In this document: in pieces, positions 367 through 8,146 of the stretch
How positions within the stretch are numbered: position 1 is the first letter of the stretch
Layout: each line of letters begins with the position of its first letter
Assembly (NCBI GenBank): GCA_963765045.1
Contig: CAVXVF010000003.1
Location: 171,488 to 235,487, forward strand
Length of the DNA: 64,000 nt
Source of the DNA: Blastocatellia bacterium
Lineage (GTDB): Bacteria > Acidobacteriota > Blastocatellia > Pyrinomonadales > Pyrinomonadaceae
Reading direction: 5' to 3'
The notes under the pieces: generated by a model
What the model was told of the DNA's origin: nothing
Database searches by the model: none
Seen by the model: the letters and a program-made list of their open reading frames with translations, nothing else
Program-made: the position numbers and the translations under genes

Positions 367-400
367 GGGGCTTCGTTTGACGGAGCCTCGTACTTTTTAT
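367..400. terminator. Bidirectional hairpin terminator between convergent rplT and kbl
   Basis: ggggcttcg (367-375) pairs with cggagcctc (381-389), with G:U wobbles, followed by tactttttat. Confidence 0.5.
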
Positions 401-1578
401 ATCCCCAACTCCGCCTTTGCCTCAGCAAACATCGCAACCGCAAAATCCAAATCCTCACGAGTGTGAGCGGCTGAGACCTGCGTTCGGATGCGGGCCTTTC
501 CTTTTGGAACAACCGGGAATGAAAATGGAATCACGTAAACCCCTTTTTCCAGAAGAGCCTCGGCCATTTTAACCGCCGGTCCGGCGTCACCAAACATAAC
601 CGGGACGATCGGGTGCTCGCCCGCGAGAATGTCCAGCCCAACGGCCGACAATTTTTCTCTAAAATAGCGTGTATTGTCCTGAAGCCTGTCACGCAGATCG
701 GTCGATTCGGTAAGCAATTCGACGGCTTTTATCGAGGCCGCAACGATGGGCGGAGCGACCGAGTTTGAAAACAGATATGGCCGGGAACGCTGACGCAGCA
801 GGTCAATTATTTCTTTCTTGCCGCTTGTATAACCTCCGCTGGCGCCACCGAGAGCCTTGCCGAGCGTTCCCGTTATAATGTCTATTCGGTCCATAACATT
901 ATGATGCTCGTGCGTTCCGCGGCCGGTTTTGCCCATGAATCCGACAGCGTGCGAATCGTCGATCATCACTAGAGCCTCGTACCTATCCGCAAGGTCGCAA
1001 ATCTCAGGGAGGTTCGCGATAAAACCATCCATCGAAAAAATACCGTCGGTCGCGATCATCTTGAACCTGGTTGAAGATGCTTCCTGCAGTTTCGCCTCAA
1101 GGTCAGCCATATCGCCGTTCCTATATCGAAATCGCTGAGCTTTGCTTAAACGAATGCCGTCGATGACGCTGGCATGATTAAGTTCGTCCGATATCACAGC
1201 ATCTTCCTCGCCCAAAACCGTCTCAAAAAGCCCACCGTTCGCGTCAAAGCACGATGTGTAAAGGATCGTGTCTTCTGTACCGAGAAAGGTGCTGATCTTT
1301 GCCTCAAGCTGTTTATGGACCGTCTGTGTGCCGCAAATAAAGCGAACTGACGAGAGGCCGAAGCCCCAGTCCTTCAGGCCTTGGTGAGCCGCCTTGACAA
1401 TCGCGGGGTGATCAGACAGACCGAGGTAATTGTTGGCACACATATTCAGCACTTCGCGGCCGCCTACGTTAATATGCGCGTCCTGTGGTCCATCGATTAC
1501 CCGCTCTGATTTATAAAGTCCGGCCTCGCGGATGTCGCTCAGCGTGTTTTCTAAATGCTTTTTGAATTTGCCGTACAT
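397..1578 (-). CDS. kbl: 2-amino-3-ketobutyrate CoA ligase (glycine C-acetyltransferase)
   Basis: 393 aa. Class-II aminotransferase/AONS-family sequence ([21 protein letters not shown]-like GTLGKALGG). Sits directly downstream of tdh, as in the canonical tdh-kbl pair. Confidence 0.9.
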
Positions 1579-1619
1579 ATAAATACTCAGTATTACAGTT
1601 GAAAGGCTTAATCGTTCGG

Positions 1620-1787
1620 TTATGGGTTTTTCCTAATTTCTTTTTGTACCGCGTCGAGTTTCTCATAGGTAAGGTAAACTGAGCCGCGATCGGTGTCGAC
1701 CAGCGAACATTGAGAGAGGCTTTCGTCTGCCACCAAGAACAGAATCAAGCTTGCGAAAAGCGCCAAACGTTTGGAACGAATCGTCAT
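1620..1787 (-). CDS. Possible 55-aa small secreted protein between tdh and kbl
   Basis: ATG at 1787 lies 3 nt after the tdh stop. Reads [55 protein letters not shown] with a signal-peptide-like N-terminus. It is below the ORF-track size cutoff, and I can cite no homology. Confidence 0.25.
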
Positions 1788-1790
1788 TGT

Positions 1791-2825
1791 TTACATCTCG
1801 TTAAAGTCAAGAACCACCTTCCCACAGCTACCCGACCGGATTGCTTCAAATCCCTGCTCAAAATCCTTATACGAATACCGATGCGTGATCACAGGCGAGA
1901 TATCGACGCCTGTTTCGAGGAGGACGCTCATTTGGTACCAGGTTTCGTACATCTGGCGGCCATAGATGCCTTTGATGGTGATCATGTTGAAGATGACGGT
2001 CTTCCAGTCGATCGCGAACTGCTCGCTAGGAATTCCCAAGAAGGCGATGTGGCCGCCGTGGAACATATTTGCAAGCATGTCCTTAAAAGCCGCCGGAACG
2101 CCGGACATCTCCATCCCGACGTCAAAGCCTTCCTTCATACCAAGTTCTCTTTGTACGTCTTTGATCGAGGTCTTGCTGACATCGACCGCCCTGGTGACGT
2201 GTCCCATCTTCTCGGCTAGTTCCAAACGAAATGGATTTATGTCTGTGATAACGATATTTCTCGCACCTGCGTGTTTCGCGACGGCGGAGGCCATGATGCC
2301 GATCGGGCCTGCACCAGTGATGAGAACATCCTCGCCGAATACCTCGAAGGCGAGTGCTGTGTGGACTGCGTTGCCGAACGGATCATAGATCGCGGCGACT
2401 TCCAGGTCAATATCGGGTTTGTGCTTCCAAATGTTGGTGACCGGAACGGCAATAAACTCCGCAAAGCCGCCGTTCGTGTTCACGCCGACCCCGCGTGTAT
2501 TTGCACACAAAGCCCGCCGACCGGCCATGCAGTTTCGGCAGCGTCCGCAAACGAGATGGCCTTCGACGCTGACGATGTCGCCAGCTTGGAAATCGAGAAC
2601 GTTCGACCCGACATCGACGATCTCGCCGACGAACTCATGCCCGATCGTGGTAGGCACCTTTATCGTCGCCTGTGCCCACGCGTCCCAGTTGTAAATATGC
2701 AGGTCGGTTCCACAGATCCCGCCTTTCTTGACGCGGATCATGACGTCGTTGATGCCCATTTCCGGTTCGGACACGTCCTCGATCCATAGTCCCGGTTCGG
2801 CCTTGCTCTTTACTATCGCTTTCAT
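1791..2825 (-). CDS. tdh: L-threonine 3-dehydrogenase
   Basis: Zn-dependent MDR dehydrogenase: [35 protein letters not shown]. The ATG at 2825 gives 344 aa. The longer track ORF (to 3026) would overlap pheS and adds non-homologous residues. Confidence 0.9.
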
Positions 2826-2976
2826 TCGGTTTGCGTAATTTCTTATCGTTGAATTCAACAATAATATCAAAGGCGGCCCGTACACGCGAACCTGTGATTT
2901 ACGAGACGCCGATCCGCTGTTAAAATTGCCTTGCGGATTGTATTTTCTACCGCTAAATCGGTTATCCTTTGTGTTT

Positions 2977-4068
2977 ATGTCTGAAGCGAAAGAACAAGTC
3001 GAGGCGGCTCGAACGGCCTTCATCAAAGACTTTGAACGGTTTGAAGATCTGGATCTGAATGGCGGCGGCCTTGCGGACGCGGAGGCCCTCTTGCGCGAGG
3101 TCGGCGAGATCAGGATCCGTCATACGGGAAGAAAGTCGGCGCTCGCCGAAACCAAGAAGCTTATCGGCAAAGTTGCTACTGAAGAACGCGGAGAGTTCGG
3201 CCAGTTCGTCCAATCGATCGAAAAAGAAGTCATTGAAAAGATCGAATCTGCGGAGGCCAGGCTAAACGATTTTATTGTAAAAGCCAGGACCGAAGCTGAA
3301 CGGCTTGACGTGACGATCCCGGGGCTACGACCGCGGACAGGGCATCTGCACCCGATCACGATCCTGCGGCAGAAGATCGAGGATATTTTTGTGTCGATGG
3401 GATATTCAATCGAGGACGACCGCGAGATCGAGACGGATTATTACAATTTCGACGCGTTGAATATTCCCGAAGGGCACCCCGCGCGGCATACGCAGGACAC
3501 CTTCTACACGACGAGTGGTTTTGCTCTTCGCTCGCAGACCTCGACCGTGCAGATCCGTGCAATGGAGCGACGCGGCGTACCGATACGCATTATCGCTCCG
3601 GGCAAGGTCTTCCGTCGCGATACGCCCGATATGACGCACGTACCGATGTTCCACCAGATCGAGGGCCTGTGCGTCGATAAGGGCATAACGATGGCCCATC
3701 TTAAAGGCACTGTGACAGAATGGCTGCGACGGCTATTTGGCGAAGACACGAAAACACGTTTTCGCCCGTCGTACTTCCCCTTCACCGAGCCGTCGGCCGA
3801 ATTCGACTTCTCGTGCTTCAAATGCCACGGCACCGGCAAATTCGAAAACGACCGCTGCCGTCCGTGCAAAGGATCCGGCTGGATCGAATTGGGCGGCTCC
3901 GGCATGGTCCATCCAAATGTTCTGAAGGCCGTTGGGGTCGATCCGCAGGTCTATTCCGGCTTCGCATTTGGCTTCGGCCTCGAACGTATGTGCGCGATGA
4001 TGTATTCGCTCGACGATATTCGACTGATGTTCGATAACGACGTGAGATTTTTGGAACAGTTTAAGTAA
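2977..4068 (+). CDS. pheS: Phenylalanine--tRNA ligase alpha subunit
   Basis: Class II aaRS motifs ([50 protein letters not shown]). ATG at 2977. Confidence 0.95.
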
Positions 4069-4070
4069 AA

Positions 4071-4376
4071 ATGGGTTGGGCTACTCATTACATTGCTAAA
4101 CTCAAAGATGGCGAAGCTGTTTCCTTCAGGCCTCGAGGCCATTCAATGAAAGGAGAGATTGAATCAGGTCAGTTATGCACCGTCGAACCTGTTTCAGACA
4201 TCGCAACTCTCGATAAGGGCAATATTGTTCTCTGCAAAGTGAATGGAAACGAATATTTGCATTTGATAAAAGCGATCCAGGGTTCGCGCTTTCAAATCGG
4301 TAACAATCGCGGGCGGATCAACGGTTGGATAGGCCCGAAATCGATCTTTGGAAAGTGTGTTAAAGTTGAGGACTAG
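4071..4376 (+). CDS. Stand-alone mini S24 (LexA/UmuD-type) peptidase-like protein, 101 aa
   Basis: GHSMKGEIESGQ (Ser nucleophile context G-x-S-M) and LHLIKAI (candidate general-base Lys), with no DNA-binding domain. Starts 2 nt after the pheS stop. Confidence 0.55.
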   Translation: MGWATHYIAKLKDGEAVSFRPRGHSMKGEIESGQLCTVEPVSDIATLDKGNIVLCKVNGNEYLHLIKAIQGSRFQIGNNRGRINGWIGPKSIFGKCVKVED

Positions 4377-4384
4377 GAGTATTT

Positions 4385-4591
4385 ATGCAAGTCACAACTA
4401 TTGAAGGTATTGTCAAGAATGGACAGATACAAGTAGACGAAGATATTATTCTGCCAGAGATGACAAAGGTTTTCGTTATTATTCCACGAGATGAAAACGT
4501 CAGGCGTGTTATGAGTCCGAGACTTGTTAACAAAGCCGACGCGAAAATATTCGAAAAAACGGTCGAGGTTGATCTTGATGACGAAATTTGA
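4385..4591 (+). CDS. Small DUF104/AF2212-like (antitoxin-like) protein, 68 aa
   Basis: The N-terminal pattern IEGIVKNGQIQVDEDIILPEMTKVFVIIP matches the 'G.I.P.....LPEG..V.V.I' shape of DUF104 antitoxins. Acidic C-terminus. Overlaps the next ORF by 14 nt. Confidence 0.5.
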   Translation: MQVTTIEGIVKNGQIQVDEDIILPEMTKVFVIIPRDENVRRVMSPRLVNKADAKIFEKTVEVDLDDEI

Positions 4592-4967
4592 TGCCTCTTA
4601 TGATCCGCCTGCCCCGATCGAAAAAATAGCAATAAAGACCATTGAAAGCGGAGAACGATTGCGAGACGTTAAAATGCTTCTCGACACAGGTTCGGATATT
4701 ACCCTTTTGCCGAAGACGAACTTGCTTGAATTAGGCATCGAACCTTCCGATAAGACATTTGAATTGATCGGGTTCGACGGGCACATTATCAAGTCGGAAA
4801 TTTATCATCTGCAAGTAATTTTTCTTGGGAAGCGTTTCACTGGCAACTATTGCGCGATAGATGATGTGGTTGGGATTCTCGGCCGAGACATTCTTAATCA
4901 AATTACAATTATATTTGACGGTCCAGGTTTAGAATGGGAGGAGATTCAATCGACCTCTTTAAAATAA
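4578..4967 (+). CDS. Retropepsin-like (clan AA) aspartyl protease, ~129 aa
   Basis: All three retropepsin signatures are present: LLDTGSD (catalytic DTG), flap-like IGFDG, and ILGRDILNQ (compare retroviral IIGRNLL). The ATG at 4578 overlaps the upstream stop (atgacgaaatttga). Confidence 0.75.
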   Translation: MTKFDASYDPPAPIEKIAIKTIESGERLRDVKMLLDTGSDITLLPKTNLLELGIEPSDKTFELIGFDGHIIKSEIYHLQVIFLGKRFTGNYCAIDDVVGILGRDILNQITIIFDGPGLEWEEIQSTSLK

Positions 4968-4976
4968 CATTATTGC

Positions 4977-7067
4977 ATGAACATCAGTTACAACTGGTTA
5001 AAAGACTTGATCGCGATCGATTTGTCCGCCGAGGAATTGGCTGAGAAATTGACGCGTGTCGGTTTGGCGGTCGAAGGCATTCATCCTCATGAGGATGATT
5101 TTGTTTTTGATATCGATCTGACGTCGAATCGGCCAGACTGTTTGTCGCATCTCGGCGTGGCCCGCGAAATCGGCGTCATCACTGGGAATCCGCTGTTTCC
5201 GAAAGTTCAGACGCGGCCTTTGGATATAGACGTGCCAATCCCGGCGATCCTTGCTCCGGATATCGTCAAAATCGAAGACCCAGACCTTTGCCACCGGTTC
5301 ACGGCGCGGATTATCAGGAACGTGAAGATCGGCCCCTCGCCGGAGTTTCTTATACAGCGGCTTGAGGCAATCGGTGAGCGTTCGATCAATAACATCGCCG
5401 ACATTACGAATTACGTTATGCATGAGCTTGGGCAGCCGATGCACGCGTTCGATCTCGACAAATTGGCCGAGAAGCGGATCGTTGTCCGCCGGGCAAAAGC
5501 CGGTGAAACGATCAAGACGCTTGATGATGTCGACCGGAAGCTAGATGAAACCATATTGACTATCTGTGATTCGGAAAAACCGGCTGCAATCGGCGGTGTA
5601 ATGGGCGGGCTCGATTCGAGCATCACTGAAGATACAGCTAATGTGTTAATTGAGGTTGCGTTCTTTAAGCGTGAAAGTATAAGGCAGACATCCCGCAAGG
5701 TCGGGCTTGCGACCGAAGCCAGCTATCGCTTTGAACGCGGCGTGGATATAGAGAATCTGAAAGCGGCTTCTGACCGCGCGGCTGAGCTGATACAGGAACT
5801 TGCGGGCGGGGATCTCGGCGAATTCATCGACGTTTATCCGACCAAGCATAAGCGTAATCGCGTTGAGTCAAAGGATATTTCGCCATCCGTAATGCGGCTG
5901 ACTGGTCTGGATGTCCCGCAAAATGCCTGCCTTAACATTCTGGCAAATTTAGGTATTGCCGCGGATGAAGCGAGTACACCGGTCGTGTTCACATCGCCAT
6001 CGTGGCGCCACGATATTGCGATCGAAGAAGACCTGGTTGAAGAAATTGCACGGCACACCGGCTACGAAAACATCGCCGACAAACTGCCGCCGGCTTACGG
6101 AGCAGGCGAATATCAGGGATCTGAGGTGCGTAAGAAGCTGCTGCGACAGACGCTCGTAGACATTGGGTTTGACGAGGCAATCTCCTACAGTTTTATCGAT
6201 ACAAAGTTTGACGATAAGTACGAGTTGATACCCGGAATTGTTGACGAGAACGCAGCGGACAAATTCGTAACCCTTCAGGATTCGGTCATCGAAGGTGCTG
6301 TCCGAATGCGTCCGACGCTTCTGCCCGGACTACTTGATTCGGTTCGGCTTAATCTCAATCATCAACGCCGCGATTTGCGTCTTTTCGAAATCGGAAAGGC
6401 CTTTGCCGCCGGGCAGGGCGAAGATAATCTTCCGATTGAACGCGAGCTGTTCTCTATCGTGTTGACCGGCGGCGAGGCATTGAAAAAGCGCATGATGCCG
6501 GCTCGCGCATTGGATTTTTACGATGCCAAGGGAGCAGTCGAAGCGGCGCTCGATGCGGTCGGGTTCGAATCGGTTGAATTTCGCGATGCGAATGTCAAAC
6601 ATCTTCGCGCTGGACAAACGGCCTCGATCCACATCGACGGCGGCTGTATCGGCACACTTGGGCGTCTGAACGAAGATATCTCGTCCGAATACAAGTTCAA
6701 GCAGCCTGTATATTTGGCGGAGATAGATCTTGACGCAGTGTTTTCGCGAAACACACAGCCGATCCTTTACCGGCCGCTGCATAAGTATCCGTCAATCACC
6801 CGTGATGTGTCGCTTTTGGTCGATCGGACGACTACATTTGACGATATTCGAGCAGCCGTAATCGATCATGATGCGGATCTTTGTCGTAATGTTGGGTTTG
6901 TGGACATCTTCGACGTTAAGGATGCTGTAGACGGTAAACGCTCGCTGACTATAAGGCTAGAGTATCGAAGCGACGAGCGAACCCTTGTTGATGAAGAGGT
7001 TACGGCTGTTCATGAAGGTATTTTAGAGAGTTTAGGTAAAACATTAGGGGTTGAACAGCGGTCTTAA
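4977..7067 (+). CDS. pheT: Phenylalanine--tRNA ligase beta subunit (short form, no N-terminal OB tRNA-binding domain)
   Basis: 696 aa. Contains B3/4, B5 and FDX-ACB regions. The N-terminus runs from AVEGIHPHEDDFVFDIDLTSNRPDCLSHLGVAREI straight into the B3/4 region. Confidence 0.93.
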   Translation: MNISYNWLKDLIAIDLSAEELAEKLTRVGLAVEGIHPHEDDFVFDIDLTSNRPDCLSHLGVAREIGVITGNPLFPKVQTRPLDIDVPIPAILAPDIVKIEDPDLCHRFTARIIRNVKIGPSPEFLIQRLEAIGERSINNIADITNYVMHELGQPMHAFDLDKLAEKRIVVRRAKAGETIKTLDDVDRKLDETILTICDSEKPAAIGGVMGGLDSSITEDTANVLIEVAFFKRESIRQTSRKVGLATEASYRFERGVDIENLKAASDRAAELIQELAGGDLGEFIDVYPTKHKRNRVESKDISPSVMRLTGLDVPQNACLNILANLGIAADEASTPVVFTSPSWRHDIAIEEDLVEEIARHTGYENIADKLPPAYGAGEYQGSEVRKKLLRQTLVDIGFDEAISYSFIDTKFDDKYELIPGIVDENAADKFVTLQDSVIEGAVRMRPTLLPGLLDSVRLNLNHQRRDLRLFEIGKAFAAGQGEDNLPIERELFSIVLTGGEALKKRMMPARALDFYDAKGAVEAALDAVGFESVEFRDANVKHLRAGQTASIHIDGGCIGTLGRLNEDISSEYKFKQPVYLAEIDLDAVFSRNTQPILYRPLHKYPSITRDVSLLVDRTTTFDDIRAAVIDHDADLCRNVGFVDIFDVKDAVDGKRSLTIRLEYRSDERTLVDEEVTAVHEGILESLGKTLGVEQRS

Positions 7068-7159
7068 AAAATGTTAATAACTTACTTGAAGTTTTTTCAA
7101 AAAATACCCATAATCAAAACCTAAAATATTTATCGATTCCTAAATACGGAGACTGCTTA

Positions 7160-7886: not shown

Positions 7887-8040
7887 AGCCCGCTGTGCTA
7901 GACTTTCAATTGGCGAAGGAATTCTACTGCGTAGCTCGTTACTGAACGCAAACATAATTGAGCCAACACTTGAATTGCGGGAGGCTAATGCCGGTTTCGG
8001 TGCAATCTTCCATGTTGAAGATTTGCCATAGGATCCGGCT
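7887..8040 (+). ncRNA. ssrS: Candidate 6S RNA (ssrS): a ~155-nt rod-like imperfect hairpin
   Basis: Lies in a 345-nt gap between convergent genes, directly downstream of zapA (a conserved ssrS position). Hand-folded pairs: agcc 7887-90 with ggct 8037-40; tttcaa 7904-09 with ttgaag 8015-20; tgg 7911-13 with cca 8010-12; aagg 7916-19 with tctt 8006-09; tagc 7932-35 with gcta 7984-87; cgcaa 7947-51 with ttgcg 7975-79. An unpaired 7920-31 / 7988-8005 segment could be the central bubble. G:U pairs favour the + strand. Confidence 0.4.
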
Positions 8041-8146
8041 ATGATGTTTCGAAAGAAGCAGATCGCCGCCCACCTGTTAAAAGCAGGTTCAATTCATGCG
8101 TTTGGAACGGCCATGTGGTTCTCTCTCGCCTTTTATATTTCCCCTC

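Follow-up and report, generated by a model that had tools for sequence, protein, structure and literature searches.

The subject of this report is the interval between pheS and pheT, the genes for the alpha and beta subunits of phenylalanyl-tRNA synthetase (PheRS), in a 64,000-nucleotide (64-kb) stretch of contig CAVXVF010000003.1 from a Blastocatellia bacterium of the family Pyrinomonadaceae (Acidobacteriota), hereafter the window. The two genes are separated there by an insert of 908 nucleotides (nt) that carries three small open reading frames (ORFs), and the features of the locus are as follows (lengths of products in amino acids, aa).

2977-4068, + strand: pheS, phenylalanyl-tRNA synthetase alpha subunit (Pfam tRNA-synt_2d, E 8e-97), upstream anchor of the proposed hotspot
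4069-4976, + strand: the whole insert, 908 nt, holding two independent cassettes
4071-4376, + strand: ORF1 (cassette 1), 101 aa, stand-alone LexA/signal-peptidase (clan SF) fold
4385-4591, + strand: ORF2 (cassette 2, first gene), 68 aa, AF2212-like (DUF104/COG2880) antitoxin-type beta domain
4578-4967, + strand: ORF3 (cassette 2, second gene), 129 aa from its ATG, retropepsin-like aspartic protease
4977-7067, + strand: pheT, phenylalanyl-tRNA synthetase beta subunit, 696 aa, downstream anchor of the proposed hotspot

PheT matches the Pfam domains B3_4, B5 and FDX-ACB at E-values of 1e-20 to 1e-70, tRNA_synthFbeta also being matched, and pheS is taken from the ATG at 2977 used in public gene calls (363 aa), with a TTG at 2926 as the alternative start. 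For ORF3 the listed TTG start at 4524 is the less probable choice, since the ATG is where public calls place the beginning of this protein. All of the ORFs are co-oriented, and the spacings along pheS/ORF1/ORF2/ORF3/pheT, taken from the raw sequence and the ORF list, are 2, 8, -14 and 9 nt, which agrees to the base with the three ORFs, the gaps of 2, 8 and 9 nt and the 14-nt overlap reported in a preliminary description of this DNA. The Shine-Dalgarno sequence of ORF2 (AGGAG) overlaps the stop codon of ORF1. The terminator scan found no terminator-like site on the + strand of the insert, and in the promoter scan the promoter-like matches within it did not exceed the shuffled expectation, the gap between ORF1 and ORF2 being merely 8 nt. 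Given this tight spacing, together with the absence of terminators and of any excess of promoters, co-transcription of the insert with pheST is plausible, the cassette genes presumably being transcribed by read-through from the pheST promoter.

The GC content of the insert is 42.1%, against 54.9% in pheS, 51.5% in pheT and 49.2% in the window as a whole, and just 1.1% of all 908-nt segments across the 64 kb are equally low; the preliminary description, working from hand counts of 37% versus 48%, had the direction of this dip right and its values somewhat off. Median ratios of non-synonymous to synonymous substitution (dN/dS) among orthologues are 0.13 for ORF1, 0.19 for ORF2 and 0.25 for ORF3, which on the evidence of the aligned sequences identifies all three as conserved protein-coding genes under purifying selection, and their earlier treatment as genuine genes stands. 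A repeat scan of the insert found no flanking, direct, inverted or attC-like repeats beyond short chance repeats. When the window was searched with the clusters of ORFs found between pheS and pheT in related genomes (see below), no further copy of any cassette was found in the rest of the 64 kb, and the only other cluster matches within the insert were opposite-strand ORFs overlapping ORF1 to ORF3.

Variability and scars of the junction in related genomes

A scan with PheS, keeping one genome per species, yielded 80 loci (cited below by L numbers), all from Pyrinomonadaceae and related Blastocatellia (Acidobacteriota), in which pheS, pheT and ORF1 to ORF3 were placed by tblastn; the ORFs in the gaps were clustered and representatives were scanned against Pfam. 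Identity to the window ranged from 75 to 87% for pheS and from 55 to 85% for pheT across these loci, and five public contigs of evidently the same species carry the trio in identical or near-identical form. In the 69 loci with both genes, the distance from pheS to pheT was -4 nt in nine (an ATGA overlap of the two genes); 13 others have a gap of 7-134 nt, and the remaining 47 one of 244-5570 nt. In the other 11 of the 80 no pheT appears in the DNA examined, so that the gap extends from -4 nt to more than 5570 nt. By comparison, the next junction downstream, from pheT to a gene for a 97-aa protein, served as a control and measured 80-99 nt in 54 of 57 loci, so the variability is confined to the interval between pheS and pheT.

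The gaps are occupied by at least 15 families of cassettes that recur, nearly all of them on the strand of pheS, and by singletons besides. The recurrent cargo includes XisH with XisI, a PIN protein with a small partner, an NmrA/DUF2867 protein, a secreted redoxin, small membrane proteins, zinc-ribbon proteins and a Cys-rich 84-aa protein; genes for SIR2-STAND, DUF4268, DMP19-like and M35 peptidase proteins were each found as one-off cargo. The unusual or defence-type cargo lies at L036 7180-9534, L042 7170-7766 and L064 8636-9742, and comprises a 784-aa protein with SIR2-like and STAND NTPase parts, a DMP19-like protein and a DUF4268 protein. In one closed genome of 5.4 Mb, ten co-oriented genes stand between pheS and pheT, and because closed long-read chromosomes (L054, L084 and L086) carry such arrays they are not an artefact of assembly. 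Three loci (L056, L077 and L084, with pheS at about 6001-7095) have no pheT within 6 kb, and the cassettes there are followed by ordinary-looking chromosomal genes, among them those for an ABC-type ATPase and an MR_MLE-family enzyme of the enolase superfamily and, in L084, an opposite-strand gene for a 937-aa protein; the linkage of pheS and pheT may be broken in these three.

In Neisseria, minimal mobile elements (MMEs) are sites at which different whole-gene cassettes, incorporated by homologous recombination, lie between two conserved genes (PMC3082526, where the concept is credited to Saunders & Snyder 2002 and Snyder et al. 2007). We consider it probable that the Pyrinomonadaceae pheS-pheT junction is a lineage-wide recombination hotspot of this type, and that the insert in the window consists of two unrelated cassettes. 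Under this reading pheS and pheT, being conserved and essential, would serve as homology anchors between which co-oriented genes devoid of promoter and terminator would be gained, swapped, stacked and lost.

The distribution of the three genes bears out their modularity. ORF1, ORF2 and ORF3 are contiguous in five of the 80 species (L009, L011, L014, L015 and L052, the copy in L052 being degenerate); ORF1 occurs alone in L026, L045, L079 and L080, where the gap is about 310 nt, and ORF2 with ORF3 but no ORF1 is found in L025, L033, L059, L068, L078 and L082. Since each part is found without the other, the trio represents two independent cassettes and not, as had been supposed, a single unit. 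An ORF3 homologue in the related loci is always accompanied by a neighbouring ORF2 homologue, and ORF2 occurs by itself in L056 and L076. The nearest relatives of the window by PheT identity are L011 (85%), L016 (79%) and L010 (76%); the first keeps the trio with ORF1 broken by an in-frame stop, the second has a different gene of 324 aa and the third has a gap of 97 nt. In the gene calls the broken ORF1 of L011 (1273-1578) is split into pieces of 54 and 37 aa; it may be a recent pseudogene or reflect a sequencing error. Thus the suggestion of a horizontally acquired, foreign-looking insert is upheld by the patchy presence of the trio, the differing content of the closest relatives and the low GC, and comparison of spacing among relatives found the trio neither phylum-wide nor ancient between pheS and pheT.

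Decay is common as well: decayed fragments of trio genes were detected in L045, L052, L054, L059, L063, L068, L071 and L084, and truncated copies are frequent for each of the three genes. These observations bear on the proposal that the cassettes are selfish hitch-hikers in an essential operon, always expressed there and impossible to delete without harming pheT expression. The tight packing and lack of a terminator accord with such addiction, as does the abundance of toxin-antitoxin-type cargo (PIN with its partner, XisH/XisI, the AF2212-like protein with its protease). Loss is nevertheless evidently easy, for 22 of the 69 loci with both genes have a gene-free gap (nine have no insert at all and 13 more have less than 135 nt), the closest relatives differ in content, and each of the three genes is often met as a pseudogene or in truncated form; moreover, ORF1 has neither a partner gene nor the usual features of a toxin-antitoxin system. 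We therefore regard addiction as an unlikely explanation of the locus, and the frequency of absences and pseudogenes contradicts the notion in the preliminary description that loss would be difficult.

The GC of the gap is lower than that of both flanks in 42 of 45 loci, and the pairwise identity of cassettes tracks that of their flanks poorly (Spearman rho 0.03-0.37, compared with 0.58-0.74 for pheS versus pheT), which together indicate that the cassettes have passed between lineages and were not simply inherited vertically. Had an ancestor already carried ORF1, and perhaps more, between the two genes, the present diversity would be a matter of differential loss, and the constant position of ORF1 at this junction within the family, its high conservation and its low dN/dS of 0.13 would fit such a history. 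The correlation between ORF1 and flank identity is nevertheless weak (rho 0.29-0.37), cassette GC is low, the genes on both sides of ORF1 differ between species, and relatives of ORF1 with 60-75% identity reside in phages and on Vibrio plasmids, all of which makes an ancient insert very unlikely.

The gaps also hold copies of the neighbouring gene ends. At least 13 loci contain, downstream of or between cassettes, copies of the 3' end of pheS (40-86 nt, 87-100% identical and reaching the stop codon), and L014 and L025 have copies of the 5' end of pheT inside the gap. For 10 of 14 such scars, comparison with all 80 species finds a better match than the resident pheS: a scar in L086 agrees with the pheS end of L054 at 100% identity over 65 nt, and for the second scar of L063 the resident gene ranks 38th. 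Where a foreign pheS matches better, either the scar or the present end of pheS stems from another lineage, and foreign alleles of this kind are as predicted by recombination anchored in pheS. In L077 (7101-8589) one PIN and partner cassette is present as a tandem pair, each member followed by a pheS 3' copy, and such copies separate cassettes in L081, L063, L064 and L086 as well. A cassette with a trailing pheS 3' copy has homology on both of its sides and could therefore insert after the pheS of any relative or be excised, and homologous recombination by itself would suffice for both steps; the copy in the window would be a streamlined form free of scars.

The same repeats might instead mark an attachment site, at the 3' end of pheS, for a recombinase provided in trans, by analogy with integron cassettes, XerCD/dif elements and islands at tRNA genes. 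Direct repeats of the pheS 3' end do bound cassettes and all reach the stop codon, some of their boundaries are common to several species, and the arrays are co-oriented and stacked in the fashion of integrons. Nevertheless, the repeats vary in length from 26 to 86 nt, and L014 and L025 contain pheT 5' copies besides; a large number of junctions, the four of the window among them, measure 0-12 nt and have no repeat; no integrase was seen in the scanned loci, nor attC-like inverted repeats in the window; and the pheS alleles in the scars are foreign ones, which homologous exchange would lead one to expect. Furthermore, the junctions of ORF1 in different genomes are 0-12 nt on either side, whatever the neighbour, which leaves no room for attC-like sites. 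Site-specific integration is accordingly distinctly unlikely in our view, and homologous exchange between pheS and pheT anchors is preferred.

Around the operon, the junction between rplT and pheS is variable too: a divergent kbl-tdh pair (397-3026, - strand) lies upstream of pheS in the window and likewise between rplT and pheS in a contig of the same species (L003), whereas L086 has a Uma2-family gene there and L087 is empty. A gene for 6S RNA (SsrS) is found at 7921-8125 on the + strand (Rfam, 53.9 bits versus a gathering score of 46.4), downstream of the cluster of pheT, the 97-aa gene and zapA. Many bacterial PheT proteins contain a tRNA-binding (B2/EMAP-like) domain near the N-terminus; the 696-aa PheT of the window has no Pfam match to this domain, and the PheT proteins of related loci are 687-696 aa long.

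Products of the two cassettes

PHROGs and NCBIfam gave no usable assignment for ORF1, ORF2 or ORF3. The antitoxin-like character first noticed for ORF2 was confirmed at the level of its family, in which 9 of 17 members match PF01954 (AF2212-like; best E 2.1e-5). The family keeps a C-terminal motif, R-(I/V)-M-S-P-R-L-V (window 4505-4530, residues 41-49), followed by an acidic tail. A search of PDB sequences with the ORF2 profile returned ribosomal protein L1 as its sole match, at chance level. The identification of ORF3 as a retropepsin-like aspartic protease likewise held: it matches the Pfam families Asp_protease_2, gag-asp_proteas and RVP with E-values of 2e-5 to 1e-4, and D36, T37, G38, G102 and R103 are invariant in 43 sequences. 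Its AlphaFold2 (AF2) model, built as a monomer, has a pLDDT of 89 and gave 182 PDB matches in Foldseek at E<=0.001, of which the top ones are all retroviral proteases, with a TM-score against HIV-1 protease of 0.6-0.7 when normalised to the target. ORF3 thus shares with the retropepsins (family A2; Asp_protease_2, NCBIfam clan_AA_DTGF) the fold, the D-T-G-S motif and a C-terminal G-R-D motif, and like them it is of monomer size and would have to dimerise; it differs in lying outside any polyprotein or retroelement, in being encoded with a small partner and in scoring near or under the curated cut-offs.

ORF2 and ORF3 are most likely a toxin-antitoxin-like pair, as their sequences and arrangement suggest, and an addiction-like function is possible for this module. 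The conserved C-terminal tail of ORF2 would either restrain the ORF3 protease or be cut by it. The AF2212-like group (COG2880/DUF104) has been predicted to provide AbrB-like antitoxins for PIN toxins (PMC2701414), and the pair resembles the VapBC-type type II toxin-antitoxin systems with such antitoxins in that a small AF2212-like gene lies upstream of, and overlaps, a gene for an enzyme of about 130 aa, and in its patchy and mobile distribution; it differs in that the partner is a retropepsin-like aspartic protease and not a PIN nuclease. A pairing of AF2212-like and retropepsin-like proteins does not figure in the catalogue of Makarova et al. 2009 (PMC2701414) as far as it was searched, nor was it met with in the other papers searched, and a full-text search of the literature found nothing linking retropepsin-like proteins with toxin-antitoxin systems.

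A distant homologue of ORF3 (32-34% identical) follows parAB and has a different small partner with a weak match to DUF5678. Homology between ORF2 and this partner was considered and rejected, as hhalign of the family found no similarity. The DUF5678-type partner (L088 3603-4004) ends in R-R-V-Q-M-T-S, which resembles the ORF2 motif, and the two ends may represent a common recognition or cleavage motif for the protease. The two-component system PDC-M08 of PADLOC was also set aside: ORF3 weakly matches PDC-M08B (E 2e-4), no ORF2 family member matches PDC-M08A, and a literature search on PDC-M08 found nothing. As just three weak matches to ORF3 were obtained among viral contigs, its cassette is not typically phage-borne.

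ORF1 scores against the Pfam S24 family (PF00717) at E 0.003 and 17.7 bits, under the cut-off of 23.3, and falls far below the cut-offs of the NCBIfam signal-peptidase models. Its family is nonetheless very large, with 5699 clusters at 90% identity and, at 50%, 1334 representatives. Invariant positions in an alignment of diverse members include W3, A4, P21, G23, S25, M26 and H64, and within the G-x-S-M motif G23, S25 and M26 are invariant in 80 sequences. The AF2 model (pLDDT 95) resembles in Foldseek the LexA C-domain, UmuD' and the Staphylococcus aureus signal peptidase SpsB at TM 0.6-0.68, with LexA C-domains reaching E 1.5e-4 and TM 0.61-0.68; further likenesses are to lambda CI and to signal peptidases including the human Ser/His enzymes, and a fold search of BFVD added nothing beyond CI, LexA and signal-peptidase look-alikes. 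The profile of the family aligns with SpsB (E 4.6e-4) such that S25 takes the position of the catalytic Ser and H64 that of the catalytic Lys.

The S24/S26 fold previously proposed for ORF1 therefore stands. The accompanying assignment as an S24 Ser/Lys enzyme was rejected: Lys67 is not conserved (K, S, T, G, L or Q in the family), and the column of the catalytic Lys of SpsB is occupied by the invariant His64, which suggests that ORF1 uses a Ser25/His64 dyad. Comparison with clan SF, namely LexA/UmuD/lambda CI (S24), signal peptidase I (S26A) and SEC11/archaeal signal peptidase (S26B, Ser/His), shows a common fold and G-x-S-M nucleophile motif, the best matches being SpsB and LexA C-domains. 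ORF1 differs in its size of 101 aa, in the lack of a helix-turn-helix or other DNA-binding domain, of an Ala-Gly self-cleavage region and of a membrane anchor, in the replacement of the general-base Lys by an invariant His (as in the S26B enzymes) and in falling under the curated thresholds of the Pfam and NCBIfam models. It is probably a minimal cytoplasmic Ser/His peptidase of clan SF, and it moves as a lone gene between bacteria, megaplasmids and jumbo phages.

Outside the Pyrinomonadaceae, homologues of ORF1 were found within an element bearing an integrase and insertion sequences (IS), after leuA beside IS630-type transposases, after a radical-SAM gene, on Vibrio megaplasmids (60% identity) and in jumbo phages. 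A metagenome scan with the single ORF1 protein returned one locus, and a scan of IMG/VR returned 109 viral contigs, many of 200-570 kb, with relatives at 45-75% identity. Among the best 80 of these 109 viral loci (L107-L186), 30 have tRNA genes within 5 kb of the homologue, and all 234 of these tRNA genes lie on its strand; the nearest is at most 150 nt away in 13 loci and at most 1.5 kb away in 28, and a tRNA-Phe gene lies within 5 kb in nine. In Bacillus phage G the homologue gp89 (L096) sits inside a tRNA array, 220 nt from tRNA-Phe, and in Rctr197k (L098) a distance of 2.4 kb separates it from a preceding array in which 12 tRNAs are annotated, 11 of them found by ARAGORN. The recurrent phage neighbours are HNH endonucleases, which are the commonest, a GGQ-motif protein that by its sequence resembles a release factor, and a fragment with the look of a class II aminoacyl-tRNA synthetase, both as judged by inspection only; the neighbour survey showed no one partner gene to be constant beside the viral homologues. 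A literature search gave no match for an ORF1-type (S24) protein in phage tRNA arrays.

These surroundings raise the question of whether ORF1, and perhaps other cassettes, act on PheRS, tRNA or translation and were placed in pheST by function. All Pyrinomonadaceae contexts of ORF1 examined are between pheS and pheT; its conservation (about 80% identity) is like that of pheS and above that of pheT (about 63%); and the proximity and shared strand of the viral tRNA genes, the position of gp89 near tRNA-Phe and, on inspection of the sequences alone, the GGQ-motif and synthetase-like neighbours point the same way. On the other hand, ORF1 is missing from the junction in about 60 of the 80 related species, its contexts outside the family (leuA with IS, radical-SAM, the integrase element and the Vibrio megaplasmids) have no tRNA genes nearby, phage tRNA arrays are known landing places for small mobile genes, HNH endonucleases being the commonest neighbours here, and the other cargo of the junction is unrelated to translation. 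A functional link is possible but in our view rather doubtful: either ORF1 has a role in the biology of tRNA or of translation, or the tRNA arrays and the interval between pheS and pheT are alike slots that are expressed and permit recombination.

Relation to known systems and implications

Several points weigh against the reading of the junction as a recombination hotspot loaded with cassettes of this kind. The comparison genomes are mostly metagenome-assembled and repeats can mislead assemblers, although the closed long-read chromosomes L054, L084 and L086 agree; and the scan that found no integrase or transposase covered the larger gap ORFs and cluster representatives and took in part of the singletons. 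Scars following ORF2-ORF3 share their left boundary across species (L078/L064/L075 and L081/L063), a pattern that could as well stem from site-specific insertion or from one event in an ancestor, and the insert of the window is free of scars, so that its own route of insertion cannot be read from it. Read-through from pheST is deduced from the spacing and the absence of terminators alone. As regards the second cassette, ORF2 of the window is itself under the detection threshold of PF01954, and both the toxicity of ORF3 and its neutralisation by ORF2 are predictions only.

Notwithstanding these points, the correspondence with the Neisseria MMEs is close. The same pair of flanking genes is involved, since the pheS/pheT locus of N. 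meningitidis holds different restriction-modification systems, for example NmeDI (PMC3082526; PMC7973814); different cassettes occupy one slot, and there is no dedicated mobility gene. At the present junction the flanks are conserved (69 of 80 loci), the whole-gene cassettes vary and the insert lacks transposase, integrase and terminal repeats, while incorporation by homologous recombination is putative, its indirect signs being the scars of pheS 3' and pheT 5' ends, the 10 of 14 scars with better foreign matches and the decoupled identities of cassettes and flanks. The junction differs from the Neisseria element in its phylum (Acidobacteriota), in its cargo, which consists mostly of small toxin-antitoxin-type genes or genes of unknown kind and not of restriction-modification systems, in its co-oriented stacks of up to 10 genes and in its very tight packing, with junctions trimmed to a few nucleotides, and perhaps also in the pheS 3' copies that often separate cassettes here.

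The core defence hotspot cDHS1 of Pseudomonas aeruginosa has pheS, pheT and rplT as conserved neighbours, together with a MerR-family regulator, ihfA and a tRNA-Pro gene (PMC10250203). It resembles the present locus in having variable defence genes near pheST, some Pyrinomonadaceae gaps also containing defence-type cargo (SIR2-STAND), and differs in that its cargo consists of large defence systems; we take it to lie beside the pheST operon near tRNA-Pro and not between pheS and pheT. Integrons, in turn, share the stacking of co-oriented, mostly promoter-less cassettes behind one promoter, and integron arrays often include toxin-antitoxin cassettes. In contrast to integrons, no intI was seen in the scanned loci and no attC inverted repeats in the insert of the window, and the repeats found at this junction are pieces of a housekeeping gene and are absent from many of the junctions between cassettes.

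Two linked readings may be put forward together, namely that ORF1 represents an undescribed, translation-linked family of minimal Ser/His peptidases and that the arrays form a cassette system free of integrase; as a pair we think them doubtful, with some chance of being right. If they were true, the habitat of ORF1 would be loci of translation genes, the tRNA arrays of jumbo phages and the acidobacterial pheS-pheT junction alike, and ORF1 would act in conflict between phage and host over tRNA or translation, for example by destroying a tRNA-targeting toxin or by processing a translation factor. The copied 3' end of an essential gene would then be a portable homology arm, in the role that attC has in integrons.

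As regards the recombination hotspot itself, an essential two-gene operon would be a busy docking site for accessory genes in abundant and poorly studied soil bacteria. That pheS and pheT are used alike in Neisseria, which belongs to a distant phylum, may point to something general about the junction, namely a highly conserved gene pair, strong constitutive expression and tolerance of spacing. The pheS 3' scars would offer a readable record of how cassettes arrive without a mobility enzyme, and point to a testable mechanism. The ORF1 family has thousands of members, is common to jumbo phages, often within tRNA arrays, and comes with a clear catalytic hypothesis, and the locus as a whole brings together, in little space, many small genes of toxin-antitoxin-like and defence-like kinds that may serve as leads for finding new functions.

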